A stretch of 64,000 nt of DNA from Dehalococcoidia bacterium (GCA_965208015.1 OZ242309.1:800247-864246), one strand, 5' to 3'; positions 22,543 through 61,623 are shown, numbered from the stretch's first letter. Program-made: numbers and translations. Notes: generated by a model not told the origin, from the letters alone.

Positions 22543-22682
22543 ATTGGGATTACGAATACGCAATATTTATTCTTGCAATGTATCACTAAAGGCGATACAA
22601 ATGATGCCGCGGCGGCTATCCACACTTGGCAGGTGGACCAACCGCCGCGGCAGCCGATGAGCTTGCCGAGCGTGATGCAGCG

Positions 22683-23525
22683 CTACATCACCGCCTCCGC
22701 GATCCGGTCGATTTCATCCAGCGCACTGGCGTCGGTCGTGTCGCCCAGCCTGATGATCACTCGGTTGGCGCCAGCATCTTCGAACCGGGAGAGCGTGTCG
22801 CGATCCGGGGCTTGACCGAATACGGTGATGTCGATTCCCGATGGATCTCTGCCGGAGGCCTCGGCCAACTCTTCGATAGCGGCCTTGCCGGCGGCGATCT
22901 GCTCGGGGCTGGCCGCAGTGGGCATCCAGCCGTCACCCCATCGAGCGACTCGGCGGAAGACGTTGCGCGCGTTGCCGCCCAGAAGCACCGGAGGGCCACC
23001 CTCCTGGGCCGGCTTCGGATTGCACTGAACCGGCGGGAAATCGTAGTACTGGCCGTGGTATTCGGCGGCGTCCTGCGTCCACAGCGCGCGCATGACCTCG
23101 ATGGCCTCCCGGGCTTGCGTCCACCGATGATCGAAGTCGCCGCCCATGATCTCCGTTTCCTCGCGCAACCATCCGGTGCCGATCCCCAGGATAAATCGCC
23201 CGCCGGAAAAACGGTCCAGGGTCGATATGGCGCCGGCGAGAACCAGCGGGTTGCGTTCCGGAATGAGCGTGATGCCTGTACCCAACTTGATCCGGCTCGT
23301 TACCGCCGAGGCTCGGGCGAGCCCAATATAAGGATCACCCATGTCCGCCATGTACGGAGGGATGGAGCCGTCCGGCGAACCGGGATATTTCGATGCCGGA
23401 TTGACCGGCATGACCGGATGCTCGGGCAACCAAATGGACTCAAACCCGGCGTTTTCAGCCCGCGCGGCAATGTCCGCCACGTCGATCGAGTTGGTCGAGA
23501 TTGACATATTCAAACCGATGTCCAT
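22683..23525 (-). CDS. LLM-class (luciferase-like) F420-dependent oxidoreductase
   Basis: AENAGFESIWLPEHPVMP, GTGWLREE and AEYHGQYYDFPPV fit the luciferase-like monooxygenase/F420 oxidoreductase family. ATG 23525 has GGAGG 5 nt upstream. Confidence 0.8.
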   Translation of the reverse strand: MDIGLNMSISTNSIDVADIAARAENAGFESIWLPEHPVMPVNPASKYPGSPDGSIPPYMADMGDPYIGLARASAVTSRIKLGTGITLIPERNPLVLAGAISTLDRFSGGRFILGIGTGWLREETEIMGGDFDHRWTQAREAIEVMRALWTQDAAEYHGQYYDFPPVQCNPKPAQEGGPPVLLGGNARNVFRRVARWGDGWMPTAASPEQIAAGKAAIEELAEASGRDPSGIDITVFGQAPDRDTLSRFEDAGANRVIIRLGDTTDASALDEIDRIAEAVM

Positions 23526-23683
23526 CGTTGCCTCCAGAGTCAATATCTAATGCCGTGTTCGGCCCGGATAATAGCACTGCGCCCGGCTCGCGTCCATGCG
23601 GCGGTATAGCCGCCCAGTGATATACTTGACGACAGATTTTTCTTTTCAACAACCATTGCACGTTCATAATCAGGAACTCTCCT

Positions 23684-24103: not shown

Positions 24104-24901
24104 ATGGCCGATGCGCGCCCACCCACCGTAATGACCATCGCCGGCTCTGACTCGGGTGGCGGCGCCGGCATCCAGGCAGACCTGAAAACTTTCTCCGCGC
24201 TGGGCGTGTTCGGCACGTCCACCCTCACGGCGATCACCGCTCAAAATACCGTGGGCGTCAGCGCGGTGCACGAGATCCCCACCGACGTCATCACCGCACA
24301 AATTGACGCCGTGGTCACGGACATCGGAGCCGACGCGGTCAAGACCGGCATGTTGTCGTCCAGTGAGATTGTGGAAACGGTCGCCGATGCCATCCGACGG
24401 CACGGCATCGCCAATCTGGTGGTTGACCCGGTTATGGTTGCCAAGAGTGGGGATCGTCTCCTGCGCGAAGAGGCTATCCAGTCCATCTGCAACTACCTGA
24501 TACCGCTGGCGGCCGTGGTCACTCCCAACATCCCGGAGGCAGAAGATTTGACGGGTCATGTCATTCGGTCCGATGAGGATGTGCGGGACGTCGCGATGCG
24601 CATCGTGGCCATGGGCGCGCGCTCGGTGGTGGTAAAAGGGGGACACCGGGACGGGCCGCCCACCGACGTTCTATATGATGGCAACGAATTCCAGGAGTTC
24701 ACCACAGAGCGCATCCAGTCCACGAACACCCACGGCACCGGCTGTACGTTCGCCTCTGCCGTGGCCGCCGGGCTTGCCCACGGGCTGGACGTGCCCGCGG
24801 CGGTGGCCCAAGCTAAGGATTACGTGACCGCCGCCATTCGCGCCTCCTATCCGATAGGCCAGGGCCATGGTCCGTTACACCACTTCCACGCGTATTGGTG
24901 A
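24104..24901 (+). CDS. thiD: hydroxymethylpyrimidine/phosphomethylpyrimidine kinase
   Basis: [31 protein letters not shown] and [11 protein letters not shown] motifs. Confidence 0.9.
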
Positions 24902-28921: not shown

Positions 28922-28934
28922 AGGCATTTCGCAG

Positions 28935-29354
28935 TCAGAGGATGTTTTCGCTGCCGATGGCTGCGACGGCCAGAGACCGATTGTCGGCTTTCAGTGCGAT
29001 CATGGCGTATCCTGCCTGGCGGCTCAGGATGTGCATGCTCTCGATGTTGACGCCAGCCTCTTTCAGGTCACCGGCCACTTTGGCCAACGCTCCGGGTTCG
29101 TCGGGCAAGCGGAGCACCAGAGCGTCGTCGCTGATTGCCTTGAAACCCGCCTGATTGAGAACATAAAGGGCTCGGTCGTAGCGATCGGCGGTCAGGATAA
29201 TGGCAGCCTCTTCGCCTACCACCTGCGCATTGATCGATTCCAGGTTGATGCCTTCCGCGGCCAGGACCTGGCTAATGTTGGCAATGACGCCGACCTCGTC
29301 CTGAGTCATGACGATGATGCGGTTCAAGGGGTTCACTTGGTTCATAATGACCAA
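28935..29354 (-). CDS. tandem ACT-domain protein
   Basis: Two ACT-like units (DEVGVIANISQVLAAEGINLESI and DEPGALAKVAGDLKEAGVNIESM). TTG start has GGAGAAAG upstream. Confidence 0.7.
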   Translation of the reverse strand: MVIMNQVNPLNRIIVMTQDEVGVIANISQVLAAEGINLESINAQVVGEEAAIILTADRYDRALYVLNQAGFKAISDDALVLRLPDEPGALAKVAGDLKEAGVNIESMHILSRQAGYAMIALKADNRSLAVAAIGSENIL

Positions 29355-29393
29355 TCTTTCTCCGAATCCGGTGGAGGAGTGAGCGAAGCAAGG

Positions 29394-30542
29394 TCAGCCG
29401 GCGCAGTCGGCGACGAGTTCGTCGATCATCTCCCGGCTGACGTGCGGCATGGTGATAATGTGGGCGATGTCACCTTCAGGGGCCATCTGCCACTTGCGGA
29501 ACACTTCCCGGCGCGGGCGCGGGAACACCACCGTAACCGAGTTCCGGTGCCGCCAAGCGGATATCCCGCGCTCGTTGAACTGCCCCACCGCATATTCCGC
29601 CGTGTCCAGCATTCCGGCGACGACATCGCGAAACCCTCCATGTCCGCGCTGGGCAAAAGCGTACCAGATCATCAGCGGGGCCAGCGCGTTGCGGGAACCG
29701 GACAGGGTTGTGTCTTCAACGCCCACGTACTCGATGGCGCGACCCACCCGTTCCACGTAGGGACGCTTGGTCAGCACCACGCCGCAGGGCAGGGGCGCGC
29801 CGATCAGTTTGTGCCCGCTTACCGAAACGCTGTCTACGCCGGCGTCAAAGCCGTAGGGCTGAGGGTCGTCGACGAATGGCAGGATCATGCCGCTGAGTGC
29901 GGCGTCGGCGTGGATGTAATGGCTGGTCACCGCCTGGTCACTCAGGATGTCCCGTATCCGGCCGATGTCGTCCACCGCGCCGCGCATGGTGGTGCCCACG
30001 TTGGCCATGATCACGGCGGGCAGGTCACGATTGACCCGGATCATCGCTTCCAGGTCATCGTAGTCGATTTCACCATTTTCCTGCCGCCTGATCATGATGT
30101 GGCGGGCGTTCAGCACCCGCACGTTTTTTAGCACGCTGTAGTGCGTTTCTTCCGAGAAGTAGAACATTGCGTTGGGGAACAGCTCCCGTGCCAGGTACAG
30201 ACCGTACATGTTGCCTTCGGTGCCGCCGGAAGTCACGTAACCCCAGGCATCCTCCGGCGCGAGGCGCATCAATCCGGCGAAAATATCGATGACCTCTCGC
30301 TCGATTTCGTGGGTATTGCCCCAGAAATTGCTCGGGTAGAAGGGGTCACCGACATTGTTGATTGAGTAGTCCAGGAAGGGCACCAGAGGGGAGTAGTCGA
30401 AGTCCTGATTCACTGGATAACCAATTTGTTGCCGCGTGGCAGAGTGAATATCGCTCAACAACTGATCCAGCCGTTTTTGGATTTCCGGTTGTGGCAAAGC
30501 CTCTGGCATCGATGTGGTGGTTGACGCTAACACGTTGGACAT
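29394..30542 (-). CDS. PLP-dependent histidine decarboxylase-like (group II) decarboxylase
   Basis: Collinear with Gram-negative Hdc as recalled: INNVGDP, WGYVTSGGTEGNMYG, HADAALSGMILPFVDD and the PLP lysine in SVSGHKLIGAPLPCG. ATG 30542 (MSNVLAS). Confidence 0.8.
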   Translation of the reverse strand: MSNVLASTTTSMPEALPQPEIQKRLDQLLSDIHSATRQQIGYPVNQDFDYSPLVPFLDYSINNVGDPFYPSNFWGNTHEIEREVIDIFAGLMRLAPEDAWGYVTSGGTEGNMYGLYLARELFPNAMFYFSEETHYSVLKNVRVLNARHIMIRRQENGEIDYDDLEAMIRVNRDLPAVIMANVGTTMRGAVDDIGRIRDILSDQAVTSHYIHADAALSGMILPFVDDPQPYGFDAGVDSVSVSGHKLIGAPLPCGVVLTKRPYVERVGRAIEYVGVEDTTLSGSRNALAPLMIWYAFAQRGHGGFRDVVAGMLDTAEYAVGQFNERGISAWRHRNSVTVVFPRPRREVFRKWQMAPEGDIAHIITMPHVSREMIDELVADCAG

Positions 30543-30875
30543 AATCCTGGCTCCAATGGTGAACGGCCCGTTGCGATGGTCTTCTTGCGGGCGGGGCCGG
30601 CAGTCTCTCAGTTGCCCGGCGGACGAGATAGCCACTCTGCGTATCCGATCCGGAGTGACGTTGCTGGGTCCGTTGCCGGTCGCCGGTTAGGGTAGTGAAG
30701 ATGAGCCCAAACCGCAATGTGGGATGCAGCCCCACGGATTCCACGTGAAGGGACCTTGCCTTGCATCAAAGGCAATGTTCGTAATCGGTCGACCATGTCG
30801 GGTTGCACTGAGCGCGGACGTCGGCAATAGCGTTAGCGGGCGCACAATTCCCAGGGACAGGTATTCAGTTAACAA

Positions 30876-32288
30876 TCATTGCGCTTTCATGGGCAGGCGG
30901 ATCGTTACCTTGGCGCCCCTTCCCGGTCCGTCGCTTGTCAATGCAATCGCACCCCCATGTCCTTCAACGATAGCGCGGGCAATGGGCAGCCCCAGGCCGG
31001 TTCCGCCTATCCCTCGACTGCGCGACCGGTCGGTGCGATAGAACCGTTCGAAGACGTGGGTCAGGTCCGCGACGTCGATGCCCAAGCCGTCATCAGTGAC
31101 AGAGACTACCAGCGCTTCGTCGCCTTCGGGCGCCGCACGGAGCACGATCCTACCGCCGGCTTCGGTGCAATGAATGGCGTTGCTGATGACGTTGCCCAAC
31201 GCTTGGCTCATGCGCACCCGGTCCAGGTCCAGGTCAGGCAGGTCGCCGCATACTTGCAGGGAGAGTTCAACCTGTCGAGCCTGGGATTGCGGTTGCCAGC
31301 GCTCGACCTCCGTCGCGAGCAGTTCGGAAACCGAGCTCGCTTCGAGAGCGAGCCTCAACTCACCATGGTCAGTCTCCGCAAGCCAGTTCAAGTCGGTCAC
31401 GAGACCACGCAGCCGGGCCACTTCCTGGATGATGTGGTCTGAAGCGTCGTCCGGCGCCTGTAGTCCGTCGTGCAGCCCCCTGGCCTCCAGTAGGATGACG
31501 CTGAGTGGTGTGTTCAGCTCATGAGCGATATCGTTTATCAACTGGCGTCGGAGTTCGCGCTGGGTTCTCAGGGCCTCGTTCATATGATTGAAAGCCTCGC
31601 TCATCTTTCCCAGCTCGTCCGAGGATGTAACCGGCAGGGAGGTTGACTCTCCCTGGGCAATGGCCTGAGTTGCTTCCGTCAGAGCCGTCACAGGTGCGGT
31701 GATTCGTTTGGACAGCCAGACGGCGAGCACGATGGCGACCGCGACCGTCAGCGCTCCCCCGGTCAAGGTGATGAACAGGAGCGCGTTCAGAAACCCGTGA
31801 GACTCGGTGGACAGGAACTCGCGGTTCACGTCCACGTAGACGTGACCGACCGGCCGGTTCCCGGAGAGGTCGAATACCGTTTCCCGGTGCCCTTCCAGAG
31901 GGGGCGGTGCGACTCCGGGCGGTACCTGGGACAGATTGTCCTTCACCACCAGACCGTCGGCGTCAACGATGACTACGCGCACCCGGTCGTGTTGATTTCC
32001 CTCGGAGTGTTCCCCCTCCCTTTCTTCCGACCGCTCCATTCGTGGCATCCCGGCGTAGAGGAATCCCCCCTCCGACAGCGCCTGGTCCACCGTCGCCCAT
32101 CCGCCGGCGTCCGTGTACTCGCGGCTAAGGTTGCGGGCAAGCTGATCCGCCCGGTCTCCGCCCACCCGTTCCACGAACACCCCCAGGCGGGCCTGCGTCG
32201 CGTAGTAGCCCACACCTATGCTGGTACATACCGTGAGCAGCACGACGAACACGATCGCCGCCAGGATTCTCCAGCGCAGGGATTTCAT
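30876..32288 (-). CDS. sensor histidine kinase (TM-periplasmic domain-TM-HAMP-HisKA-HATPase)
   Basis: H-box IAHELNTPLSVI, G-boxes DDGLGI and GGTGLGLPIARAIVEGHGG. The periplasmic loop contains ERSEEREGEHSEGNQHD. Confidence 0.85.
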   Translation of the reverse strand: MKSLRWRILAAIVFVVLLTVCTSIGVGYYATQARLGVFVERVGGDRADQLARNLSREYTDAGGWATVDQALSEGGFLYAGMPRMERSEEREGEHSEGNQHDRVRVVIVDADGLVVKDNLSQVPPGVAPPPLEGHRETVFDLSGNRPVGHVYVDVNREFLSTESHGFLNALLFITLTGGALTVAVAIVLAVWLSKRITAPVTALTEATQAIAQGESTSLPVTSSDELGKMSEAFNHMNEALRTQRELRRQLINDIAHELNTPLSVILLEARGLHDGLQAPDDASDHIIQEVARLRGLVTDLNWLAETDHGELRLALEASSVSELLATEVERWQPQSQARQVELSLQVCGDLPDLDLDRVRMSQALGNVISNAIHCTEAGGRIVLRAAPEGDEALVVSVTDDGLGIDVADLTHVFERFYRTDRSRSRGIGGTGLGLPIARAIVEGHGGAIALTSDGPGRGAKVTIRLPMKAQ

Positions 32289-32962
32289 GCATCCTCCACG
32301 ACGAACCGGTAACCCGCGCCGTACACGGTCTGGATGGGCTGCCTGCTGTCGCGGTTGATGTGCCGGCGCAGTCGGGCCACCTGGTTGTCGATGGCGCGGT
32401 CAAACCCTTCAAACTCGTCGTTGAAGGTGAGCGAGATCAGCTGGTCGCGGGTGAGCACCTGGTTGGGGTGACGCATGAAGGTCGCCAGCAAGGCAATCTG
32501 TGCCTGGCTCAGGGGCACGGGCTTTTCATCGACCGTCACCGTCCGGGCGGCTTCGTTGAGCGTGATGCTGCCATGAGTGAGGACTTGCTGCACCTTGCCT
32601 TTGACCCGGCGCAGCACGGCGTGGGCGCGGGCGATGACCTCGTCTGGGTCGAAGGGTTTAACGATGTAGTCGTCGGCGCCGCTGTCCAACCCGTTGATGC
32701 GCTCTGCATGGGCCTCCCTGGCGGTGAGCATGATGATAGGAACGTCCGACTCCCGGCGCAGGATCCGGCACAGCTCCACCCCATCGAGACGGGGCAGCAT
32801 CAGGTCCAGGATCAGCAGGTCAGGTTCCAGCTCCCGAGCCAGGTCCAGACCGGCTGCGCCGTCATGAGCGACCTCGGCCGAAAAACCGGCGCGTTCGAAG
32901 TAAACCTTGACCCAGTTGGCGATCCTGGTGTCGTCCTCGACAATCAATACCGCGCCGCTCAT
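32285..32962 (-). CDS. OmpR-family response regulator
   Basis: LIVEDD, DLLILDLMLPRLDG and a winged-helix C-terminus (YGAGYRF). ATG 32962 has GGAGGG upstream. ATGA overlap with the kinase gene. Confidence 0.9.
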   Translation of the reverse strand: MSGAVLIVEDDTRIANWVKVYFERAGFSAEVAHDGAAGLDLARELEPDLLILDLMLPRLDGVELCRILRRESDVPIIMLTAREAHAERINGLDSGADDYIVKPFDPDEVIARAHAVLRRVKGKVQQVLTHGSITLNEAARTVTVDEKPVPLSQAQIALLATFMRHPNQVLTRDQLISLTFNDEFEGFDRAIDNQVARLRRHINRDSRQPIQTVYGAGYRFVVEDA

Positions 32963-33097
32963 CAGCAGCCCTCCGGCGATGTTTGGCAGGACGCGGCGTC
33001 TCCAGGGAGACACCGCGTCGACAGGCTGGTGCTTTTGGGACTGATTATCTCACCGTGAGCTACAGGTCGAAATCTGCCCCAGAGAGTTGCAGCGGTT

Positions 33098-34246
33098 CTA
33101 TCCGCCACCGCGGCGCTCTCCGCCGGATCCGTGTTCGCCGCGGGAACCATGTTCGCCACCGGACCGGCCATTGCCACCGTGTTCACCTCCGGCCTCACCG
33201 CCGCCAACCTCGGCGTGAGCCACCCATCCGGTGAACGACGCCTGGGTCGCGGGCAGGTAAACCCCAATGGCCTGTCCCGGAGCCATGTCCACCGGCACGG
33301 TGGGCCCGAGCTCGGCGCCGTTGGACAGGTGAACTTCGATCCTGACCTGGTTCAACACGTTGCCTGTAGTGTTTTCGACAGCGCCGATGAAGGCGTTGCT
33401 GGCGGCGTCGTAGTTCAGGACCAATCGGGCGCCGCCCCGGATGGCATCGAAAGTTTCATCCAGAGCCAGTAAAGCCCCGCTGCCTTCTTCGCTCCCCGAT
33501 GCGCCGCTCTCGCTGCCGGAGCCTTCTCCGCCGGGACCGTGGCCCTCGCCGCCGGCTCCTTCACTGCTGCTGCCTTCTGCGCCATGCGGAAGCGGGCCAG
33601 GGCCGCCGCAGTCAAATACCTCCATGTGGATCACGTACCCGTCGAAGGAGACCCCAGCGAGGTTGGGCTCGCTCGACACCGGGATGCTGGAAGTGGCCTG
33701 CTGTCCCGGATTCAGGTTCCCCAACTGGTCGGGTCCCAACTCGCCCACCGTCCGGGCACCGGACTTCAGGTGAGGTTCGGCCTGCACGTAGCACAGATTC
33801 TGGGAGAGGGTGTTCTGCACCGTTGAGCGGACGGTCTGGGTGGCCGCATCGTAGCTGGCGGATATGGCCATCCCACCAAGCGCGCCGTTCCAGGTCTGAT
33901 CGAGGGGAGTGATGGGGCTGGACATGGCAGCTTCCCTGGCTGCTTCGTTGCCGGCTCCGCTGCTCTCCGGACCCTCCGGGCCATCGGGACCACTCTCGCT
34001 GCCGGCCTGAGCGCCCTCGGCTCCGCTGGCCTCATCGCTGTCGGAACCGCCGCCTTCGCCGCCAGAGCCGTGTTCACCGGCGGGTTCTCCGGTTGAGATT
34101 TCCTGCGTCGCGGTGGCCCTGCCGGCATCCCGGCCTTCGCCGATAACGGTGTCGTTGCCGCATCCCACCAGGACCGCCGCAGAGAGCATGACGGCCAGGA
34201 TCGAAGCGCCCAAGAATGTCCTCGTCATTAACTTCTTAATAATCAT
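33098..34246 (-). CDS. secreted lipoprotein with duplicated ~100-aa domain and Gly/Glu/His-rich repeats
   Basis: Signal peptide plus lipobox (LVGCGN). Two homologous modules (VQNTLSQNLCYVQAEPHL...GYVIHMEVF and VENTTGNVLNQVRIEVHL...GWVAHAEVG) are separated and flanked by GEHG/GGEG low-complexity segments. No family recognised. Confidence 0.6.
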   Translation of the reverse strand: MIIKKLMTRTFLGASILAVMLSAAVLVGCGNDTVIGEGRDAGRATATQEISTGEPAGEHGSGGEGGGSDSDEASGAEGAQAGSESGPDGPEGPESSGAGNEAAREAAMSSPITPLDQTWNGALGGMAISASYDAATQTVRSTVQNTLSQNLCYVQAEPHLKSGARTVGELGPDQLGNLNPGQQATSSIPVSSEPNLAGVSFDGYVIHMEVFDCGGPGPLPHGAEGSSSEGAGGEGHGPGGEGSGSESGASGSEEGSGALLALDETFDAIRGGARLVLNYDAASNAFIGAVENTTGNVLNQVRIEVHLSNGAELGPTVPVDMAPGQAIGVYLPATQASFTGWVAHAEVGGGEAGGEHGGNGRSGGEHGSRGEHGSGGERRGGG

Positions 34247-34495
34247 CTTTTCGCCTCCTTGTTTGGATTACCCACTTTGGCTACAAACCAAGTTAGAGGC
34301 GAAATGTCGCAGAATTATGTCGCGAAGAGACCATGATCGGAGATCTGCGAAACGGGATTGACGAGTGACCGACTGTATGGTGAGGCTCCCTGGATGCCGG
34401 CGGCAGGAACCAAGTCAACAAGCATCACGCCAATCACACCGCTTGCCGGGACGTAACCCAGCGGGATCAGGGTTATCGTATGAAATTACAATTGC

Positions 34496-34524
34496 GTCAC
34501 TCCGGCGAGAGCCGGAGTCCAGAG
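34496..34524. repeat. REP-like palindromic unit (GTCACTCCGGCGAGAGCCGGAGTCCAGAG)
   Basis: 8-bp hairpin ACTCCGGC-GAGA-GCCGGAGT. Same architecture and same ends (GTCAyTCC...TCCAGAG) as the units at 47307..47382. Confidence 0.45.
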
Positions 34525-34771
34525 CCCATGATTGGCTTGATACTGGCAAGATAAAAGCCGACTTCGGTCACTGGGTATCGGCTTTCACCGGCATGGCGGC
34601 ACTCAAAACGTTCCTATGAGATAGTCCTGCGGCAGGATCGGCGTTTATTGACGGCATCGCAAGTCCGCCCGTACACTGTGAATGCCAAGCGGATCTACCG
34701 CCGGGTGTAACGCCGGCCGTCCGCGTTGATAGCTTACAAGCTACGGCAATTGTCGTTGGAGGCTTTTTATC

Positions 34772-36871
34772 ATGGCCGGTTACCGCAAGCATGAAGCGCA
34801 GGAATGGGCCTGGCAAACCTTGAAGGGGCAATGGACCACGCTGGTCACGCCCTTCACGCCGGACAACCAGGTGGACACTGATGGCCTCCGCCGGAACATT
34901 CGTCATGTCCAGAGCTTGGGCGTGCGCGGCGGCGGTTGCACCTGGAACATGGGCGAATTCTGGAGCCTGACCGAAGGCGAGCGTCGCCTGGTGATGGACA
35001 CGGTGGCCGACGAAGCCGCCGGTCATTGGCTCATCGGCGCGCACGTGACCGACACCTCACTGCGGGAAAGCATTGCGCTGGCCCAGCACGCCGAACGCCG
35101 GGGCTTCGACCTGTTGATCATTGCTCCCTCATACATGGTGACCAAGACTGAAGACCAGGTGGTCGACTTCGTGCGCCAGGTGGCCGAAAACACTGAGCTG
35201 GCGATGATGTTTTACAACTCGCCCCAGTTCGGCATCACCATCAGTCCGCAGGGCTTGAAGCGGCTCTGCGCCATCCCCAACGTCGTCGGCGTCAAAGAAG
35301 CAAGCTTCAATCAGCAAATCTCCATTGAAACCCACCTCCTGGTGGGCCGCGACGCGGTCATCAGCACACCGGACGAGTGGATATTCCACAAGGCCAAGGA
35401 ACTGGGCTTCCACCAGCAGGTGATGTTCGCCAACACCTCCGACTGGCGGTTCGACACCCCCCGGCATAACTACTACACCCAGTTCATCGACCGGGCCACC
35501 GCCGGCAACCTCGATGTGGACTTCTACAACCACTATTTGAAGGACATCAAGGCGCTGTCCGACAAGTGGTGGGGCGGCACCATGAAAAAAACCGGCGGCG
35601 CTCTCCCCGTGGCCATGTGCAAGGCTTGGGGCGAAATGATGGGCATGGCCGGTGGAAGCGTCCGCGCGCCGCTGCATGACCTTACTCACGAGGAGAAGGT
35701 CGAGCTGTGGAGCGAGCTGGAACCCCTGCTCCCACGGGCCGCAGCACCGGCCGCTCCGGCGCGGGAAGTGATCCACGGGCGCCCACATGCCCCCTGGCTC
35801 AACGGCAACGGCGCGCGCGATGGGCGGAGCGGCCTTTCCGAGTCAGGCATGATGCTGCTGGTGAGCGCCCAGAACCGGGCCGAGGCACTGGAAGCCGACC
35901 GGGGCGGCGCCGACATCATCGACCTGAAGAACCTCCAGGAAGCCCTGGTGGGATCAGCACATCCCAGCCTGGTCCGGGAAGTGCGGGAGCTCATCTCCCC
36001 CGAAAAGCACGTCAGCGTTACCCTCGGCGTCGTGCCCAACCAGCCGGGCACCGTCGCGATGGCGGTCCACGCCGCTGCCTTGATGGACGCGACCTCAGTT
36101 AAAGTCGGCTTCCAGGTTGCGGATTACGAAACCGCCGTTGAGGTGCTGCGGGAGTCCCGAGCGGCCATCGGCAACGCCGAGACCAAGCTGATCGGTTCGC
36201 TGTTCGCCGACAACCTGCTCTTCGAGGGCGGTCTCGATCCCCACCTGATGGGCCAGTTGGCCATCGACGGCGAGTGCGACGGCTTCTTGATCGACACTCT
36301 CACCAAGGACGGGCGGAACCTGTTCGACTTCATGCCGGAACCCGTGTTACGGGACATGGTGATGGAGGCCAAGCAGGCCGGCCTGAGCACCGCGCTGAGC
36401 GGTCACCTCAAGCTGGAGAACCTGGACGAGTTGGCACGCATCAACCCCGACATCGTCGGTGTCCGCGGTGCCGTGTGCTCCAGCGGCGAGCGAGACCGCG
36501 CCGTGGCCTGGGAAGCTGTAGCCTACTTCAAGGAGCAGCTGGATCTTCGCAAGACCGGCGTGATCGACGTGCGCGCTCCCGTGGGTGTTGCCGCCACCGG
36601 GAATGGCTACGGCAACGGAAATGGTCATGGAAACGGTTGGACTGTGATCGATGGTCGCGGTAAGAACTGCGCCGGCGTCATCGCCGCTTTGAGTCGCCAG
36701 ATGGAGTACGACCGCGCTTCCTTCGTCGAGGCCATCCTCCACGACGCCCTGAACATCTACGACGTAATCTACTGGGCTGAACAGGCCGGACATCGTCTGT
36801 TGACCCAGCGCAAAGAAAACGACGGTACACTCAGGGTGCTGATCGAGCCCTACGGCAACGGCAACCACTGA
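34772..36871 (+). CDS. tri-domain fusion: DapA-like class I aldolase + MfnB-like (5-formylfuran-3-yl)methyl phosphate synthase + TusA-like domain
   Basis: aa 1-320: DHDPS-family motifs (MFYNSPQF, Schiff-base-type VVGVKEAS). aa 360-595: collinear with MfnB as recalled (LLVSA...GGADIIDLKN, PGTV, VKVG, DTLTKDGRNLFD, PDIVGVRGAVC). aa 623-693: TusA/SirA-like (IDGRGKNCAGVIAAL...DGTLRVLIE). One uninterrupted ORF with GGAGG RBS. Confidence 0.8.
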   Translation: MAGYRKHEAQEWAWQTLKGQWTTLVTPFTPDNQVDTDGLRRNIRHVQSLGVRGGGCTWNMGEFWSLTEGERRLVMDTVADEAAGHWLIGAHVTDTSLRESIALAQHAERRGFDLLIIAPSYMVTKTEDQVVDFVRQVAENTELAMMFYNSPQFGITISPQGLKRLCAIPNVVGVKEASFNQQISIETHLLVGRDAVISTPDEWIFHKAKELGFHQQVMFANTSDWRFDTPRHNYYTQFIDRATAGNLDVDFYNHYLKDIKALSDKWWGGTMKKTGGALPVAMCKAWGEMMGMAGGSVRAPLHDLTHEEKVELWSELEPLLPRAAAPAAPAREVIHGRPHAPWLNGNGARDGRSGLSESGMMLLVSAQNRAEALEADRGGADIIDLKNLQEALVGSAHPSLVREVRELISPEKHVSVTLGVVPNQPGTVAMAVHAAALMDATSVKVGFQVADYETAVEVLRESRAAIGNAETKLIGSLFADNLLFEGGLDPHLMGQLAIDGECDGFLIDTLTKDGRNLFDFMPEPVLRDMVMEAKQAGLSTALSGHLKLENLDELARINPDIVGVRGAVCSSGERDRAVAWEAVAYFKEQLDLRKTGVIDVRAPVGVAATGNGYGNGNGHGNGWTVIDGRGKNCAGVIAALSRQMEYDRASFVEAILHDALNIYDVIYWAEQAGHRLLTQRKENDGTLRVLIEPYGNGNH

Positions 36872-36949: not shown

Positions 36950-36978
36950 TTGACCCGGTTTTCGGCCCGCCATATAAT
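36950..36978 (+). promoter_or_regulatory. near-consensus sigma70-type promoter TTGACC-17-TATAAT
   Basis: TTGACC 36950..36955, exact 17-nt spacer, TATAAT 36973..36978, about 77 nt before ATG 37055. Confidence 0.5.
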
Positions 36979-37054
36979 CCCCGCAGACTGACGCCAAGTG
37001 GGTATTCCGCAAACGAGATCACCCGCACGCTGGCGTCGGCGTTGGAGGGCTGAT

Positions 37055-37975
37055 ATGGCTCGTTTCGACTACCTGGAGCCGCATTCCCTTGATGAGGCGC
37101 TCGGGATGCTGGAGGAACACGGTGACCGGGCCCGACTGGTAGCAGGGAGCACCGATTTTCTGGTCCGCTGGCGCACCGGGTTCTGGCGACCGGAGGCTGT
37201 GGTTTGCATGCAGCACGTCCCTGGGTTGGACGGCTTGAGTTTCAACGATGACGACGGCCTGTCCATCGGCGCGATGGTCACGGTCCAGGACATTGAGCAG
37301 AGCGAGGTGGTCCGGACTCGGTATCCGGCATTAGCCGCCGGCGCCACCGCCTTCGCCGGTGTGCAGGTGCGCAATCTTGCCACCGTCGTCGGAAACGTCT
37401 GCAACGCCTCGCCGGCCGGGGACACGCTGCCGGCGCTGCTGGCTTACGACGCCCAGTGCCGCATCGTGGGTTGCAGCGGTGAGCGCTGGTTGCCGTTGAC
37501 TGACGTTTTCGTGGGCCCCGGGCAAACCGCGCTGGCCGCGGGCGAGATCATGACGGAGATCCGTCTGCCCACTCCTCCGCTGAACTCCGGCGGCCTGTAC
37601 ATCAAGCACAGCCCGCGCGGCGCGATGGATATATCTGCCGTGGGAGCAGCCTCCGTGGTAAGCATCGGATCCGACGGTGCCTGCGCATCGGTACGCATCG
37701 CGCTGGGCGCGGTCGCGCCGACGCCCATGCGCGCCTTCGGAGCCGAGGGTCGCCTGGTAGGACAAACGCCAACCGACGCCAATATTGCCGAGTCGGCCCG
37801 GATTGCGGCCCAAGCCTGTAGTCCCATCGCTGACGTGCGCAGCGGCGCGGAGTATCGCCGGGAGATCGCCCAGGTGCTCACCGAGCGCACTTTGAGACAC
37901 GCCGCGCAAACCGCGGTCGGCGGCGTTGCCGATTACGATGATATCCGGCGTCTGGCCGTGCAAACCGCCTGGTAA
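37055..37975 (+). CDS. xanthine dehydrogenase-family FAD-binding (medium) subunit
   Basis: MARFDYLEPHSLDEAL, LVAGSTDF, NLATVVGNVCNASPAGD and a CO-dehydrogenase flavoprotein C-terminal region (SGAEYRREI). GGAGGG RBS. Confidence 0.85.
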   Translation: MARFDYLEPHSLDEALGMLEEHGDRARLVAGSTDFLVRWRTGFWRPEAVVCMQHVPGLDGLSFNDDDGLSIGAMVTVQDIEQSEVVRTRYPALAAGATAFAGVQVRNLATVVGNVCNASPAGDTLPALLAYDAQCRIVGCSGERWLPLTDVFVGPGQTALAAGEIMTEIRLPTPPLNSGGLYIKHSPRGAMDISAVGAASVVSIGSDGACASVRIALGAVAPTPMRAFGAEGRLVGQTPTDANIAESARIAAQACSPIADVRSGAEYRREIAQVLTERTLRHAAQTAVGGVADYDDIRRLAVQTAW

Positions 37976-37996
37976 CCGGCCCACGAGGTTGATGAG

Positions 37997-38473
37997 ATGA
38001 AACAGCCGCTCAATCTGAACGTCAACGGCGAAAACCGGCTGATGCTGGTGGAGCCGGACTATTCCCTGCTGGATTGCCTGCGCGACGACGCGCATTTGAC
38101 CGGAACCAAGAAGGGCTGCGATGAGGGAGACTGCGGGGCCTGCACCGTCCTCATGGACGGCAAGCCGGTGACTTCGTGCCTGGTCCTGGCCCACAGCGCC
38201 CACGCTTCCGCCATCACCACCATCGAGGGCCTGGCCAGAGTGGATGGTCTCAGCCCGGTGCAAAAAGCCTTCGTGGAGCACGGCGGCCTGCAGTGCGGGT
38301 TCTGCATCCCGGGGCTTATCATGTCGGCTACCGGGTTCCTTCAGGACAACCCGAACCCCACCGAGGAAGACGTCCGCTTCGCCATCGGCGGTAACCTGTG
38401 CCGGTGCACCGGCTACGCCCGCGTGGTAGAGGCGGTCATGGCCGCGGCTGAGGAAATGCGAACAACTAGCTAA
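37997..38473 (+). CDS. (2Fe-2S)-binding small subunit of molybdenum hydroxylase
   Basis: CDEGDCGACTV, QCGFCIPG and CRCTGY cluster ligands. Confidence 0.9.
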   Translation: MKQPLNLNVNGENRLMLVEPDYSLLDCLRDDAHLTGTKKGCDEGDCGACTVLMDGKPVTSCLVLAHSAHASAITTIEGLARVDGLSPVQKAFVEHGGLQCGFCIPGLIMSATGFLQDNPNPTEEDVRFAIGGNLCRCTGYARVVEAVMAAAEEMRTTS

Positions 38474-38492
38474 CCGTCCCGCTCCAGCAACG

Positions 38493-40790
38493 ATGGAGGC
38501 ACATGCAATGACAACGCAGTTCAAAGTCTTGGAGCGCAATCATCCTCGTGTCGATGCGTACGATAAGGTCACCGGGCGCGCCGCCTATGCGTCCGACGTA
38601 TACCTCCCCGGCATGCTGGCGTGCAAGTTGCTTCCCAGCACACGAAACCATGCCCGCATCGTCCGGCTGGACACCAGCAAGGCGGAAGCTCACCCGGGCG
38701 TGCGGTGCGTCATCACCGGAACCGATTTCCCGGATATCCGGTACGGGTCCGGCGCCCTGCGTGACCGGTACGTCATGCCGCGCGAAGTCGTAAATTTCGT
38801 CGGCGAACCCATAGCAGCGGTGGCTGCGGACGACGAAGCCACCGCCCAGGAAGCCGTCGAGCTCATCGAGGTTGAGTACGAGGACCTGCCGTCGGTGGTC
38901 AACCCGCTGTCCGCAATGGGTGCTGACGCTGCCACGGTTCACCCGGAGTTGGAGGAATACGAGGGTTACGGGTTCACCTTGGGGCACAACGTCAGCACGC
39001 TGCTGGACGCGGACCGGGGAGACGTCGAACAGGCTTTCCAGGACGCCGACGTCGTGGTGGAGGACGTGTACCGATCACAGGGCATCAACCAGGGTTTCCT
39101 AGAACCCATGGCGTGCGTGGCGGATGTGGAACCCAATGGCCGCCTGGTCGTTTACGCTTCTACTCAGGGTCCCTACCAGATCCGGGCCGCGCTGGCCGGC
39201 GCGCTCGAAATCCCGGTGTCGCGGATCCGCGTGGTTCCCATGGAACTCGGTGGCGGTTTTGGCGCCAAGTTGCGGCTGGCATTTGAGGCTTTCCCTGCCC
39301 TCCTGGCGATGAAAACCGGGCGACCCGTGAAGTTGGTGAACACCCGCGAGGAAGTGTTCACCATGAACGGCCCGCGCCTCCCCGTAACCAACTACATCCG
39401 ATCCGGGGTGATGCGCGACGGAACTATCATGGCCCGCGAAGCTTACACGATCTTCGACGTGGGAGCGTACCTGGGCGCCGGCCCCAACTCCGGCATCGGT
39501 CACGGCATCGGGGCCTACAACGTGCCCAACTTCCGGCTGCGCTCCTACGGCGTGTACACCAACAAGATCTACGTCGGCTCTTACCGGGCCTCCGGCGTCG
39601 CCGACATGACATTTGCCGTGGAGTCCCACATGGACCGCATCGCCCACGAAATTGGGATGGATCCATACGACCTGCGGGTGAAGAACGCCCTGCGCGAAGG
39701 CGATGTTTCCGTAAGCGGGGCCGTGGTGCCCACCAACGGGCTCATGGAAACCCTCGAGGCGATTAAGGAAAAGATAGGCTGGCCTCGGGATTTGGAGGAC
39801 GGACACGGAGTTGGCTTGGCGCTGTGCGAGTGGAGGAGCGGCAGCGGCCCGTCCACGGCGTCGATCAGTGTCAACGACGACGGGACGGTGAGCCTGCTGA
39901 CGGGTTCGGTTGACATCTCCGGCAGTGACACCTCCCTGGCCGCCATTGCCGCCGAGGCCCTGGGTATCCCCATGGACAAGGTGATTGTAGCCAAGCGCGA
40001 CACCGACCTGGCTCCATACACCGGGCAATCGGGCGGCAGCCGCATCGTGTACAGCCAGGGCACTGCGGTGCAGCGCGCGGCTGAGGACACGGTGCGAAAG
40101 CTCACGGCTCTCGCCGCGGAGCGGCTGGGTGTCCCGGAGGACGCGCTGGACTGCGAAGACGGTCGCGTCTACGTGATGGATAACGAGCCGCAGGGCCTGA
40201 CGTTCGCCCAATTGGCTGCCGCCAGCATCACCTCCCGCGGCGGCCCGATCATCGGAACTGCCGCCCTTTCCAGTATGCCTTACACGCCCGTGTTCGCTGC
40301 TCAGGCCGCCGAGGTCAAGGTCGATCGACAGACCGGCCAGGTCAAGTTGCTCCGTTATATCCAGGCCCAAGACGTTGGGACCGCCATCAACCCCATGGCC
40401 GTCGAGGGCCAGTTGGACGGCGGAGTGGTTCAGGGCATTGGACGGGCGCTGACCGAAGACCAGCAATTTGACCCGGAGACGGGCGCGGTTCGGAATCCAT
40501 CCTTCGCGTCCTACCTGATGCCGCTGGCCATCGACCTGCCGGAACTGGAGAACGTGCTGATCAACGTGCCGGCGCCGGATGGGCCTTTCGGCGCGCGCGC
40601 CGTGGCCGAGCCGCCCGGCTTCGGCCCGCCGGCCGCCATCGCCAACGCGGTGTACGACGCCGTTGGCGTTCGCGTCAAGGAGTTGCCCCTGTCAGGGGAG
40701 CGCGTGCTCGCCGCGTTGAACGGGCAGAACGCTGACATCGACTTCGACGTGGATGCTCTCCGTAGAGCGGAGGGTCTCGCCGCCGATTGA
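38493..40790 (+). CDS. xanthine dehydrogenase/aldehyde oxidase-family molybdopterin-binding large subunit
   Basis: MELGGGFGAKL, GSYRASG and the catalytic-Glu region AVAEPPGFGPPAAIANAV. The CODH form-I loop (VAYRCSFR) is absent. The start may instead be ATG 38508. Confidence 0.9.
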   Translation: MEAHAMTTQFKVLERNHPRVDAYDKVTGRAAYASDVYLPGMLACKLLPSTRNHARIVRLDTSKAEAHPGVRCVITGTDFPDIRYGSGALRDRYVMPREVVNFVGEPIAAVAADDEATAQEAVELIEVEYEDLPSVVNPLSAMGADAATVHPELEEYEGYGFTLGHNVSTLLDADRGDVEQAFQDADVVVEDVYRSQGINQGFLEPMACVADVEPNGRLVVYASTQGPYQIRAALAGALEIPVSRIRVVPMELGGGFGAKLRLAFEAFPALLAMKTGRPVKLVNTREEVFTMNGPRLPVTNYIRSGVMRDGTIMAREAYTIFDVGAYLGAGPNSGIGHGIGAYNVPNFRLRSYGVYTNKIYVGSYRASGVADMTFAVESHMDRIAHEIGMDPYDLRVKNALREGDVSVSGAVVPTNGLMETLEAIKEKIGWPRDLEDGHGVGLALCEWRSGSGPSTASISVNDDGTVSLLTGSVDISGSDTSLAAIAAEALGIPMDKVIVAKRDTDLAPYTGQSGGSRIVYSQGTAVQRAAEDTVRKLTALAAERLGVPEDALDCEDGRVYVMDNEPQGLTFAQLAAASITSRGGPIIGTAALSSMPYTPVFAAQAAEVKVDRQTGQVKLLRYIQAQDVGTAINPMAVEGQLDGGVVQGIGRALTEDQQFDPETGAVRNPSFASYLMPLAIDLPELENVLINVPAPDGPFGARAVAEPPGFGPPAAIANAVYDAVGVRVKELPLSGERVLAALNGQNADIDFDVDALRRAEGLAAD

Positions 40791-40850: not shown

Positions 40851-41270
40851 TCAGTCGGCCCGGCCGTAAACGTGTGACGGTGTCACGATCACCGCGTAGC
40901 GACGGTCGTCCAGCATGGCCTGGTCGTATTCCGGCCAGTTGGGATGCTCTTGACCGGCGGCGGTGCGGAATACTTCGCGCAGGGTTTCCCGATACTCGTC
41001 GGCCGATACTTCACTGGCTCCCACCAGCCGGGCCTCGCCTTCCAGAACGAGGAAATTTCGCCAGTCGCCGGTGCCCACCAGGATCGTGCAGCGCGGATCT
41101 CGCCGCAGGTTGCGGAGCTTGGCCCGATCTGCGGTGGTCGTAAAGGCCACCCCGTCCCCGTACAGCCCGCACGTGACGATACTCATCTGTCCAGCGCCGT
41201 TCCGTCGAAAGGTGGTCAAGGCGCCGTTATGGTTTGCCGACAAAAATTCGCGTTGAGCTTCGTTCAACAT
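40851..41270 (-). CDS. PPOX-class (pyridoxamine 5'-phosphate oxidase fold) probable F420-dependent enzyme
   Basis: FLSANHNGALTTFRRNGAGQMSIV..., RAKLRNLRRDPRCTILV and size typical of the family. Confidence 0.75.
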   Translation of the reverse strand: MLNEAQREFLSANHNGALTTFRRNGAGQMSIVTCGLYGDGVAFTTTADRAKLRNLRRDPRCTILVGTGDWRNFLVLEGEARLVGASEVSADEYRETLREVFRTAAGQEHPNWPEYDQAMLDDRRYAVIVTPSHVYGRAD

Positions 41271-47384: not shown

Positions 47385-48317
47385 TTAGGAACCGGCAACC
47401 CGCCCGGAACGCAGCGCCGCGAACAGGTACGACGTAGCGTAAGACCTCCACGGAGACCAGCGTTCGGAAAATTCCAGCAGTTGGCCGTCGTCGATCTCCA
47501 CGCCATCGAAGTACAGGCTGCTGACCGTCTTGCGCAGCGCCAGGTCACCGACCGGGAACCCGTCAGGGCGGGCCAAAGCGCGGACCAAAACCCACTGCGC
47601 GGTCCACTGCCCGACCCCCCGCATGGCCACCATCCGCTTCACCACCTCGCCGTCCTCCAGGTCGTGCATGCCGTCCAGGTTGTTACCCGAATCCAGCGCG
47701 GCCCGGGCGATTCCCTGGATGTACTCCGCCTTGCGGTAGCTCAGCTTGAGTTGGCGCAAGTCATCCACTTCCGCAGTGGCCAGGGATTCGGCGCGAGGGA
47801 AGGCATACCATTCGCGGTCGATGATCGTCGCCCGGACACCGTAATTCTCGACTAGCAGACTGCGGATTATCCGGGAAACGTTGGTTGCAATCTGCTGACC
47901 CAATACCGCCTGAACCAGTGCCTCATAAACTGATGCGGTGCGCGTGTTGTGGTAGCCGTAGAAATCTCCAACGACATCGGCTAGCACGGGATCTTCGGTC
48001 ACAGCATCGTAAAAGGGCCGCAAGTCCTGATCGCACCCGAGCAGCCAGGCGATTTGTTGCGCCGCACGATCAACGTCGGATTCAGTGAGGTCGTCTCCGG
48101 TCAGATCCACCGACAACTCCGGCTGATCCACCGTGCCCACAGAGCTGATCCTCGCGAGGACGGCCTTACCGCCCAGGTCTAGGAGCCGGATGTAGCAGCC
48201 ATCGACGTACTCCTCGGTTTTGAACGGCTGCTCCCGGGAATAATTGGGCTGCCCGGCGGTCAATTCAAAGTCGTAGGGCGGCACCGGACGCACGGTGGTG
48301 ACCAGGGTCGTTTCCAT
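47385..48317 (-). CDS. DNA-3-methyladenine glycosylase II-like (AlkA-type HhH-GPD)
   Basis: AlkA-like N-terminal domain plus HhH-GPD region (MRGVGQWTAQWVLVRAL...FPVGDLALRK). Confidence 0.8.
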   Translation of the reverse strand: METTLVTTVRPVPPYDFELTAGQPNYSREQPFKTEEYVDGCYIRLLDLGGKAVLARISSVGTVDQPELSVDLTGDDLTESDVDRAAQQIAWLLGCDQDLRPFYDAVTEDPVLADVVGDFYGYHNTRTASVYEALVQAVLGQQIATNVSRIIRSLLVENYGVRATIIDREWYAFPRAESLATAEVDDLRQLKLSYRKAEYIQGIARAALDSGNNLDGMHDLEDGEVVKRMVAMRGVGQWTAQWVLVRALARPDGFPVGDLALRKTVSSLYFDGVEIDDGQLLEFSERWSPWRSYATSYLFAALRSGRVAGS

Positions 48318-61425: not shown

Positions 61426-61499
61426 GTCGGGCTCCCCCTTTCGGCTGCCCATGATACGCAAAGGCGCGATGATTGGTTTGCGAGGCGGGCCGGCGGGTA

Positions 61500-61508: not shown

Positions 61509-61519
61509 CTGAATATAGT

Positions 61520-61595: not shown

Positions 61596-61623
61596 TTATT
61601 TTTGCCCGAACAGGAGGGTTGCG

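Follow-up and report, generated by a model that had tools for sequence, protein, structure and literature searches.

A three-domain fusion gene in SAR202 bacteria

The stretch of DNA analysed here, 64,000 nucleotides from the genome of a Dehalococcoidia bacterium (GCA_965208015.1, OZ242309.1:800247-864246; hereafter the window), contains an open reading frame (ORF) along which Pfam detects, in this order, a domain of the dihydrodipicolinate synthase (DHDPS) family, a domain of the family of MfnB, the synthase of 4-(hydroxymethyl)-2-furancarboxaldehyde phosphate (abbreviated 4-HFC-P), and a small TusA-like domain (Table 1). In this ORF, the three components of a conserved enzyme system are joined in a triple fusion that is specific to its lineage. 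A preceding sequence-only reading of this DNA had called a single ORF of 699 codons with a GGAGG ribosome-binding site, had assigned the three domains and had pointed to their putative catalytic residues. The ORF, from ATG to TGA, and the GGAGG element 9 nt upstream have been verified; the domain calls are borne out by Pfam, by searches of PDB and by fold comparison; and the residues are in place, namely Lys175 (VVGVKEAS), Lys386 (ADIIDLKN), Lys444 (VKVG), Asp508 and Lys512 (IDTLTKDG) and Cys633 (GKNCAG). Overall, that reading stands in its domain calls, in taking the fusion to be genuine, in noting the lack of nearby methanofuran genes and in finding no described pathway that would fit, and is corrected below on several other points.

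The start of the ORF is well defined, with Met1 invariant in 69 orthologues. A protein search returned at least 500 homologues of the 699-amino acid (aa) protein, of which the top 120 are all full length and show 68-97% identity, and a scan with one genome per species found the fused ORF in 111 genomes, all of them SAR202/Dehalococcoidia/Chloroflexota metagenome-assembled genomes that include several closed long-read chromosomes and several genomes from sponges. The possibility of a chimeric assembly, which the sequence-only reading had left open, was checked against these related genomes, and the fusion holds: because the same ORF is present, at full length, in the genomes of 111 species, including closed chromosomes, it is genuine, neither a chance product nor an assembly chimera. 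Beyond this group the architecture is rare. An exhaustive HMMER search of 1.84 billion representatives clustered at 50% identity yielded only one other full-length cluster (P0121, 66% identity), the remaining matches being fragments, stand-alone DHDPS-like proteins (at most 44% identity), stand-alone MfnB-like proteins (at most 45%, with P0131 at 56%) and split forms. Thus, the triple fusion is real but restricted to one SAR202 lineage. A riboswitch or another RNA element upstream of the ORF was considered and rejected, given that Rfam, run over the whole window, had a tRNA at 61520-61592 as its only hit and gave no credible match in 34200-34800.

Table 1. The fusion gene, its parts and associated features (window coordinates)
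Feature	Position	Strand	Evidence or remark
Triple-fusion ORF	34772..36871	+	699 aa/codons, uninterrupted, ATG to TGA
GGAGG ribosome-binding site	34758..34762	+	9 nt before ATG; read from sequence
Weak sigma-70-like promoter match, TTGACG-18-TACACT, 9/12	34648..34677	+	consensus scan only; not evidence of function
DHDPS/NAL-family class I aldolase-like domain, aa 18-314	34823..35713	+	Pfam, PDB, Foldseek
Linker 1, aa 324-358, Pro/Ala/Gly-rich, variable	35741..35845	+	pLDDT <50, low conservation; predicted disordered; fusion junction
MfnB (4-HFC-P synthase)-family TIM-barrel domain, aa 360-594	35849..36553	+	Pfam, PDB, Foldseek
Linker 2, aa 602-621, Gly/Asn-rich low-complexity (GNGYGNGNGHGNG)	36575..36634	+	predicted disordered; length varies between orthologues
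TusA/SirA-fold domain, aa 623-693, beta-alpha-beta-alpha-beta-beta	36638..36850	+	Pfam, model, Foldseek
Sigma-70-like site, TTGACC-17-TATAAT, 11/12	36950-36978		in the 127-bp gap after the fusion gene; consensus scan
XDH-family molybdenum hydroxylase operon, three genes	36998-40790	+	127 bp after the fusion gene
XDH-family FAD subunit	36998-37975	+	
XDH-family 2Fe-2S subunit	37997-38473	+	
XDH-family Mo subunit	38493-40790	+	
Histidine decarboxylase equivalog (pyridoxal phosphate-dependent)	29394-30635	-	4 kb upstream; 478 bits vs cut-off 305

The MfnB-like domain is a distinct branch of its family

The middle domain matches the Pfam family 4HFCP_synth (PF04476) over aa 362-584 with a score of 186.5 bits against a cut-off of 22.4 (E = 8e-55; positions 1-225 of the 228 of the profile), and a phmmer search of PDB aligns aa 360-577 to MJ1099, the MfnB of M. 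jannaschii (4rc1; E = 7e-42). The two sequences are 38% identical and collinear over the whole enzyme, as the sequence-only reading had noted, and the predicted structure of the domain superposes on the TIM-barrel of MJ1099 (PDB 4RC1/4U9P) with a Foldseek TMt of 0.93 and a root mean square deviation of 1.5 Å. In the characterised MfnB, the essential residues comprise two lysines (Lys27 and Lys85) and two aspartates (Asp25 and Asp151), with Lys27 forming the Schiff base (PMC6604932); substrate-binding roles have been implicated for Lys155 and Arg217 (PMC11365854). We compared the MfnB-like residues with those of 63 other MfnB-family proteins and MJ1099, as well as across 157 distinct members of the clade to which the window protein belongs. 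All known catalytic residues are kept: Asp384, Lys386 (codon 35927-35929), Lys444 (36101-36103), Asp508, Lys512, Arg565 and Arg574 are invariant among the 157 sequences, so that the equivalents of Asp25, Lys27, Lys85, Asp151, Lys155, Arg208 and Arg217 of MJ1099 are present throughout, and the same holds for Asn28, Glu31, Asp124, Thr152 and Cys212.

In contrast, several other positions set the clade apart from MJ1099. Asp61, which is 94% conserved in the comparison set, is replaced by Val420 in the window protein and by Val, Ala or Ser, never Asp, in the clade as a whole; Tyr122, 91% conserved in the comparison set, is Phe478 here and always Phe in the clade; the replacements of Pro29 by Leu and of Ala186 by Ser are likewise invariable in the clade, and Gly32, which is at least 90% conserved in other MfnB-family proteins, is Ala391 in the window protein. 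According to DSSP, barrel strands of the model end C-terminally at positions 420 and 478, which, given the topology of a TIM-barrel, are predicted to face the active site. The MfnB-like domain is a distinct subclade and, given the clade-wide loss of Asp61 and Tyr122, 4-HFC-P is not assured as its product; we lean to the view that its substrate is triose phosphate.

The clade also differs from MfnB in always having a TusA-like partner and usually a DHDPS-like one, in the non-methanogenic nature of its hosts and in the lack of methanofuran genes nearby. The statement in the sequence-only reading that MfnB is known as a stand-alone enzyme from methanogens and methylotrophs has to be revised for the family, because the TusA-linked clade is common among Thermoplasmata, Marsarchaeota and Thermoprotei as well as SAR202. 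Several of the archaeal members carry the NCBI label "(5-formylfuran-3-yl)methyl phosphate synthase". The window protein misses the cut-offs of the NCBIfam equivalogs of this name (186.5 vs 341 bits and 178 vs 304 bits), but this is a weak test, since every sequence tested failed it, including the archaeal proteins of the clade and P0160 (217.6 bits), the closest ordinary MfnB-family protein (45% identity), which adjoins a GHMP kinase and a pyridoxal phosphate (PLP) decarboxylase in what is a methanofuran-type cluster.

The DHDPS-like domain is not DapA

The N-terminal domain matches the Pfam family DHDPS (PF00701; aa 18-314, E = 1.4e-29, 103.2 bits against a cut-off of 22.1). In a phmmer search of PDB it aligns with numerous structures of DHDPS and NanA, a profile search of the same database yields a match to DHDPS with E = 5.5e-34, and its model resembles DHDPS-family structures with a Foldseek TMt of ~0.8. 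With the DHDPS/NAL aldolases (DapA, NanA, KdgD, archaeal KD(P)G aldolase and the NahE-type enzymes) it shares the fold, the Schiff-base lysine within G-x-K-E-A, the tyrosine of the YN-x-P motif and the second tyrosine. In a set of 123 distinct sequences of the DHDPS-like partner, the Schiff-base Lys175 (codon 35294-35296; the position of E. coli Lys161) is invariant, as are Tyr148, Glu176 and Ser178, and Tyr121 is present in 119; Tyr148 and Tyr121 correspond to the catalytic Tyr133 and Tyr107.

The GTTGE motif, whose Thr44 and Thr45 bind the carboxylate of pyruvate and participate in the proton relay, is absent and is replaced by W58-[N/G/A]59-M60-G61-E62, with W58 and M60 invariant, within the longer clade motif W-x-M-G-E-F-W, which is itself invariant. 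Arg138 of DapA, the residue for aspartate semialdehyde, has no equivalent, the sequence at that position being S-P-Q-F-G. The C-terminal half of the domain is divergent and contains a clade-specific loop, QQVMFANTSDWRFD (aa 215-228), that is invariant in the DHDPS-like partners. Every NCBIfam equivalog cut-off is missed, including that of dapA (TIGR00674; 72.9 vs 206 bits), and the match to archaeal KD(P)G aldolase is weak. Stand-alone relatives of the domain with 33-44% identity, which also have the W..GEFW motif, are encoded in transporter-rich catabolic clusters that lack an MfnB-like gene. Because both the Thr-Thr of GTTGE and the DapA arginine are missing, the domain is not DapA; of the DapA-like aldolase proposed in the sequence-only reading, the hallmarks of the family and the Schiff-base lysine hold, and the likeness to DapA itself does not. 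The MfnB-like and DHDPS-like parts each lack at least one feature that defines the characterised enzymes.

The C-terminal domain has a TusA-like fold

The match of the C-terminal domain to Pfam TusA (PF01206) is below the gathering score of 28.6 both in the full protein (aa 625-692, E = 7e-4, 19.9 bits) and in the isolated domain (25.2 bits); 22 of 22 diverse homologues of the domain match this profile over its full length, with a best E-value of 2.9e-7. A profile search of PDB sequences with the domain gave no match, and fold comparison was therefore needed. Modelled alone with AlphaFold, the domain reaches a pLDDT of 89, and the model matches the structures of YeeD, of a SirA-like protein and of E. 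coli TusA with TM-scores of 0.71-0.78 (Foldseek: YeeD 8k1r, TMq 0.75; 3hz7, TMt 0.75; TusA 3lvj_C, TMt 0.78). Cys633 (36668-36670) is at the N-terminus of helix 1, the same place as the TusA cysteine. The model therefore supports the TusA/SirA-like fold that had been proposed from the sequence, and the accompanying observation of Cys-Ala in place of Cys-Pro is confirmed, the motif being D-G-x-G-K-x-C-A-G in the window protein (C-A-G-V where C-P-x-P would be).

Conservation was assessed over 138 distinct partner sequences from bacteria and archaea; between the forms of archaea and of SAR202, identity is only ~30%. The cysteine and the C-x-G motif are conserved in at least 98% of them, and an upstream Asp and a Trp are kept as well; the clade form of the cysteine motif is C-[ATKRS]-G. 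With TusA, SirA and YeeD (TsuB), the domain shares the fold, the single conserved cysteine at the N-terminus of helix 1 and a later D-[VI]-x-x-W-x-x-x-x-G-H motif. It differs from them in having C-[AST]-G instead of C-P-x-P, in its Pfam score and, furthermore, in being paired with a small-molecule enzyme and not with a sulfur-relay protein or a transporter. An AlphaFold model of the whole protein, built on 54 homologues, consists of three folded domains with disordered linkers between them.

A conserved module in bacteria and archaea

The fusion is only one of at least four arrangements in which the three parts occur. We mapped them by tblastn over all loci, with the counts corrected for three Marsarchaeota loci with overlapping genes. 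The TusA-like segment is fused to the MfnB-like gene, or directly follows it, in all 164 loci with room for it, and a DHDPS-like gene is adjacent in 115 of 123: it precedes mfnB-tusA in 96 loci, comes after mfnB and tusA on the same strand in 16, and has the latter order but is convergent in three. The 80 loci L103-L182 were added from a metagenome scan that was seeded with MfnB-like peptide patterns only, so that the adjacency of the other two parts in them is an independent observation.

The module consists of one gene in the lineage of the window, two genes in pelagic SAR202 and three adjacent genes in Thermoplasmata-type archaea. In pelagic SAR202, a DHDPS-like gene of 322-331 aa is followed, after 13-45 bp, by an MfnB-TusA fusion gene of 325-330 aa; Met360 of the window protein is the position of the start codon of the separate mfnB-tusA gene in such split forms from other SAR202 (P0123, P0124). 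P0131 is a 256-aa MfnB-like protein from soil with a separate 90-aa TusA-like ORF 12 bp downstream, and its close relatives (70-86% identity) belong to non-methanogenic archaea (Marsarchaeota, Thermoplasmata and Thermoprotei). A Thermoplasmata contig encodes the MfnB-like, TusA-like and DHDPS-like proteins as three genes in that order, the last of them 52% identical to the N-terminal domain of the window protein and endowed with the same motifs.

The flanking genes are wholly different in each lineage. The split loci of pelagic SAR202, for instance, are bordered by genes for aconitase, FakA and RecG at one end and by those for PheA, Trk and UbiD/UbiA at the other. No other neighbour is common to the lineages, and it follows that the conserved unit is the trio, with the MfnB-like and TusA-like parts as its invariable core. 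Small ORFs downstream of the split genes and other neighbours of the archaeal loci were considered as additional components and rejected because they are not conserved. The survey for the same architecture and its neighbours that the sequence-only reading had proposed thus yielded the fusion in 111 genomes and the parts as two or three adjacent genes in SAR202 and non-methanogenic archaea. Given that the module also exists in these dispersed forms, functional coupling is much better supported than by the fusion alone, and the three parts very probably form one functional unit. In the literature searched, we found no paper on this module or domain combination and no described pathway that includes the combination, in agreement with the earlier claim that no known pathway matches; the public annotations of the module proteins are generic or probably over-specific.

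The genomic neighbourhood and the methanofuran question

In the window, the fusion gene belongs to a syntenic housekeeping block that comprises ThiD, IleRS, Fpg, a variable island, the fusion gene itself, a xanthine dehydrogenase (XDH)-family operon, an F420 PPOX-class gene, SbcC, an ABC transporter and Ffh. The best NCBIfam matches of the XDH-family operon are 4-hydroxybenzoyl-CoA reductase, XdhA and the archaeal glyceraldehyde dehydrogenase, all below the respective cut-offs, and on these matches the identification of the enzyme as a CO dehydrogenase was rejected. The operon is next to the fusion gene in 53 of 80 fused loci, absent in the other 27, and present in none of the split or archaeal loci examined. 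Its patchy presence and the promoter-like site in the gap led us to reject it as a part of the module core; it represents lineage-specific synteny.

Genes for MoeA and/or XdhC are located within a few kb of the module in three other lineages (L101, 3533-6135; L102, 4442-5734; L134/L135), and a chlorite dismutase/HemQ-like (ChdC-like) gene is near the module in six archaeal loci, each of them without a neighbouring DHDPS-like gene. Together with the XDH-family operon of the window, these observations may hint at a connection of the module with the molybdenum cofactor (Moco) or haem, of which most loci show no sign; the proximity of MoeA and XdhC is a lead, not a pattern.

No methanofuran gene is seen near the module, as the sequence-only reading had observed for the window. 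No mfn, fwd/fhc or tetrahydromethanopterin-pathway gene was found in the window, where nearly all larger ORFs have been annotated, and no mfnA/C/D/E/F, fwd or fhc gene lies beside the module in the flanks of 175 related loci. The PLP decarboxylase upstream of the fusion gene was considered as a candidate MfnA and rejected: it scores 138 against the cut-off of 299 of the MfnA equivalog, it is assigned to the histidine decarboxylase equivalog, and it is found only in the four closest relatives. The only C1 oxidation described in the SAR202 genome papers is tetrahydrofolate-linked (PMC5395668), and methanopterin appears there solely in names of luciferase-like paralogues. It is quite likely that the unit does not serve methanofuran synthesis. 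A link to selenium of the YedF type, at which the earlier reading had hinted, was rejected, no gene or motif in its support having been seen.

A hypothesis on the function of the module

Could these observations be accommodated in a single biochemical scheme? The reading that we favor, with a probability of about 0.45, is that the module is a carrier-assisted synthase with two active sites that would produce a triose-phosphate-derived, possibly sulfur-containing heterocycle other than methanofuran. Under this scenario, the MfnB-like domain would bind a triose phosphate on Lys386 as a Schiff base, with elimination of phosphate, and the resulting product would be condensed, at the Lys444 site, with a second triose phosphate, followed by cyclisation, the outcome of the MfnB route being a five-membered heterocycle with an aldehyde and a CH2-O-phosphate group. 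The TusA-like domain would swing on its flexible linkers, and its Cys633, most likely as a persulfide, would hand sulfur to the enzyme-bound intermediate; the clade-wide replacement of Asp61 by Val and of Tyr122 by Phe fits an altered cyclisation. In the DHDPS-like domain, an enamine formed on Lys175 from a pyruvate-like 2-oxo acid would add to the aldehyde, extending it by three carbons. The end product would be a phosphorylated heterocyclic metabolite or cofactor precursor distinct from methanofuran. The separate elements of this scheme deserve less confidence than the coupling of the three parts. That the TusA-like part donates sulfur to the product is a tentative proposal, a carrier or regulatory role of this domain being the main alternative, and the placement of the DHDPS-like step after the MfnB-like one is perhaps marginally less tentative. 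As for the still more specific notion of a sulfur-heterocycle synthase common to SAR202 and the non-methanogenic Thermoplasmata, Marsarchaeota and Thermoprotei, with a thiophene or a thio-analogue of 4-HFC-P extended by a pyruvate unit as one candidate product, we consider it rather unlikely in this precise form.

There is precedent, by analogy only, for some of these steps. In thiazole formation by ThiG/ThiS, and in 2-thiosugar formation by BexX together with sulfur-carrier proteins, sulfur is delivered to a TIM-barrel enzyme that holds its substrate as a lysine Schiff base, and DHDPS-family aldolases of the NahE type add pyruvate to aromatic aldehydes. The likeness to ThiG/ThiS and BexX is one of logic only, in that a Schiff-base sugar phosphate in a TIM-barrel is served by a small, dedicated sulfur carrier; homology is lacking, and the carriers of ThiG and BexX are ubiquitin-like thiocarboxylates rather than TusA-fold cysteine carriers.

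A number of considerations weigh against the hypothesis. Every reaction step in it is inferred. TusA proteins normally relay sulfur to other proteins, and we know of no precedent for a TusA-fold carrier that donates directly to a small molecule; the CPxP motif is missing from the TusA-like domain, and neither a cysteine desulfurase nor a rhodanese was found in any neighbourhood examined. With the Thr-Thr carboxylate-binding motif gone, pyruvate may not be the donor in the DHDPS-like part, and eight loci have no adjacent DHDPS-like gene at all. AlphaFold gives no confident packing of the domains against each other (predicted TM-score of 0.48), and for this reason the inter-domain geometry was not used. 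Finally, the negative results on methanofuran genes cover the window and the flanks of the loci, not the rest of the genomes.

Among the alternatives, one dispenses with sulfur. The MfnB-like domain would make 4-HFC-P or a close analogue, the DHDPS-like domain would add pyruvate to it as NahE does, and the TusA-like domain would carry the aldehyde as a thiohemiacetal or would have a structural or regulatory role. The retention of all known catalytic residues of MfnB is compatible with such an oxygen furan, as is the fact that the MfnB-type product is an aldehyde and so belongs to the class of acceptors of DHDPS-family aldolases; the small domain is flanked by linkers that are predicted to be flexible, no sulfur-mobilising gene is nearby, and CPxP is absent. 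However, no biochemistry other than sulfur carriage is known for the TusA fold, the cysteine is invariant in archaeal and bacterial sequences alike, and the TusA-like part is tied to the MfnB-like part more tightly than the aldolase is, which would be odd for a shuttle; the clade-wide changes of Asp61 and Tyr122, too, are suggestive of altered chemistry. We consider an oxygen furan unlikely, although it has to be taken seriously. It is improbable that the middle domain is a true MfnB engaged in ordinary synthesis of a methanofuran or methylofuran, with the other parts being accessory or unrelated fusions. The strong Pfam and PDB matches to MfnB, the presence of the catalytic residues and the NCBI names of several archaeal members of the clade would all be in line with this explanation, but none of the 175 loci has mfnA/C/D/E/F, fwd or fhc beside the module, whereas P0160 has such neighbours; the hosts (SAR202, Thermoplasmata, Marsarchaeota and Thermoprotei) are non-methanogens; the literature on SAR202 describes a folate-linked C1 metabolism; Asp61 and Tyr122 are lost; and the known pathway has no place for the obligatory partners, TusA-like and DHDPS-like. 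The missed MfnB equivalog cut-offs count on the same side, as a weak test that P0160 fails too.

Two further explanations shift the emphasis to other parts of the module. E. coli TusA affects the synthesis of Moco, and the TusA-like cysteine might relay sulfur for molybdopterin or for the terminal Mo=S of the XDH-family enzyme, with the aldolase parts making or modifying a ligand. The XDH-family operon with its FAD, 2Fe-2S and Mo subunits directly downstream, in the window as in 53 of the 80 fused loci, speaks for this connection, together with the adjacency of MoeA in L101, L102, L134 and L135 and of XdhC in L101, L134 and L135. However, most loci have no Moco-related neighbour, including all split loci of pelagic SAR202 and all three-gene loci of the Thermoplasmata type with long flanks; a strong promoter-like site separates the ORF from the operon; and no known step of Moco synthesis needs an enzyme of the MfnB or DHDPS type. 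We regard a role in Moco synthesis as very improbable. The slimmest chance is that of a catabolic module in which the DHDPS-like part would cleave a 2-keto-3-deoxy sugar acid, or a sulfonate analogue, to pyruvate and a C3 aldehyde, the MfnB-like part would eliminate phosphate or sulfite, and the TusA-like cysteine would capture the sulfur species. Such a module would be in keeping with the transporter-rich catabolic clusters of the stand-alone DHDPS-like relatives, with the membership of archaeal KD(P)G aldolases in the DHDPS family (and the weak NCBIfam match to them) and with the broad catabolism of dissolved organic matter for which SAR202 is known (PMC5395668). It is hard to reconcile with a single-copy, highly conserved module that is situated among housekeeping genes (IleRS, Fpg, RecG, PheRS) without a transporter or a regulator and that keeps the residues of both substrate sites of MfnB.

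Returning to the carrier-assisted synthase, we see in the module a variant of MfnB-type synthesis that has an aldolase partner and an obligatory cysteine carrier, and there is a realistic chance that it makes a new class of product. Should the TusA-fold carrier pass the sulfur on its cysteine directly to the Schiff-base-bound triose-phosphate intermediate, this would be the first TusA-type carrier to feed a small-molecule enzyme of the class I aldolase type and a new branch of MfnB chemistry. MfnB chemistry, so far known only from methanofuran synthesis, would acquire a second, older or wider use; the annotations "(5-formylfuran-3-yl)methyl phosphate synthase" and "dihydrodipicolinate synthase family protein" would in that case mislead. 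SAR202 rank with the most abundant bacteria in the dark ocean and in the microbiomes of sponges, and archaea with the module occur widely in hot springs and peat soils. That all of these hosts have a highly conserved, single-copy, three-component system hints at a part of core metabolism that is still missing from the picture, either a cofactor or a signature metabolite.

Other genes in the window

The variable island between fpg and the fusion gene spans ~5.8 kb (28922-34771); in most relatives, less than 1 kb separates the end of fpg from the fusion gene downstream. In addition to the histidine decarboxylase, it encodes an ACT-domain protein (28935-29354, minus strand), a histidine kinase (30876-32288, minus), an OmpR-type response regulator (32285-33013, minus) and a 382-aa protein (33098-34246, minus). 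The decarboxylase (29394-30635, minus) and ACT genes are present only in L001, L002, L005 and L007, and the kinase, the regulator and the 382-aa protein were not found in the closest loci. The latter protein has a lipoprotein-like N-terminus (LVGCGNDT) and two similar modules of ~130 aa within Gly/Ser/Glu-rich low-complexity stretches; neither Pfam nor NCBIfam gave a match for it, and no copy was seen in related loci. On the opposite strand of the decarboxylase, the ORF at 29031-30131 (plus) is probably a shadow ORF. The same is probably true of a 292-aa ORF at 22626-23504 (plus), which has no family match and lies opposite a gene for an F420-dependent luciferase-like oxidoreductase (22683-23543, minus; TIGR03619, above the cut-off) in this high-GC genome.

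The F420 PPOX-class gene of the syntenic block encodes a small F420-dependent oxidoreductase (40851-41270, minus; TIGR03618, above the cut-off) and adjoins sbcC. It is syntenic in 65 of the 80 fused loci and absent from the split and archaeal loci; in the clade without the XDH-family operon, it follows the fusion gene in convergent orientation, in L076 directly.

Two genes of thiamine biosynthesis are present in the window, one for ThiE (thiamine phosphate synthase) with an N-terminal extension of ~115 aa (7518-8495, plus) and one for ThiD (HMP-P kinase) just upstream of IleRS (24104-24901, plus). No thiazole synthase gene was seen in the window; whether SAR202 have this enzyme would bear on the idea of a sulfur heterocycle.

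At the left end of the window, a 588-aa protein (903-2669, minus) combines a C-terminal nitroreductase domain with a long N-terminal part that has no assignment, and is accompanied by dihydroneopterin aldolase (FolB; 2572-2961, minus) and a C-C lyase of the CitE/HpcH type (2958-3836, minus); no link of these genes to the fusion gene was seen. A 953-aa ORF with two DUF4349 stretches (59770-62631, minus) encloses the tRNA detected by Rfam (61520-61592, plus), which makes the extent of this ORF doubtful. Finally, a 461-aa ORF (48901-50286, minus) shows an unusual pairing of an Amidohydrolase_2 domain (aa 3-273) with a G/U-mismatch DNA glycosylase domain of the Mug/UDG type (aa 288-448), and adjoins genes for a LigT-like phosphoesterase (48317-48904) and an HhH-GPD glycosylase (47385-48317).

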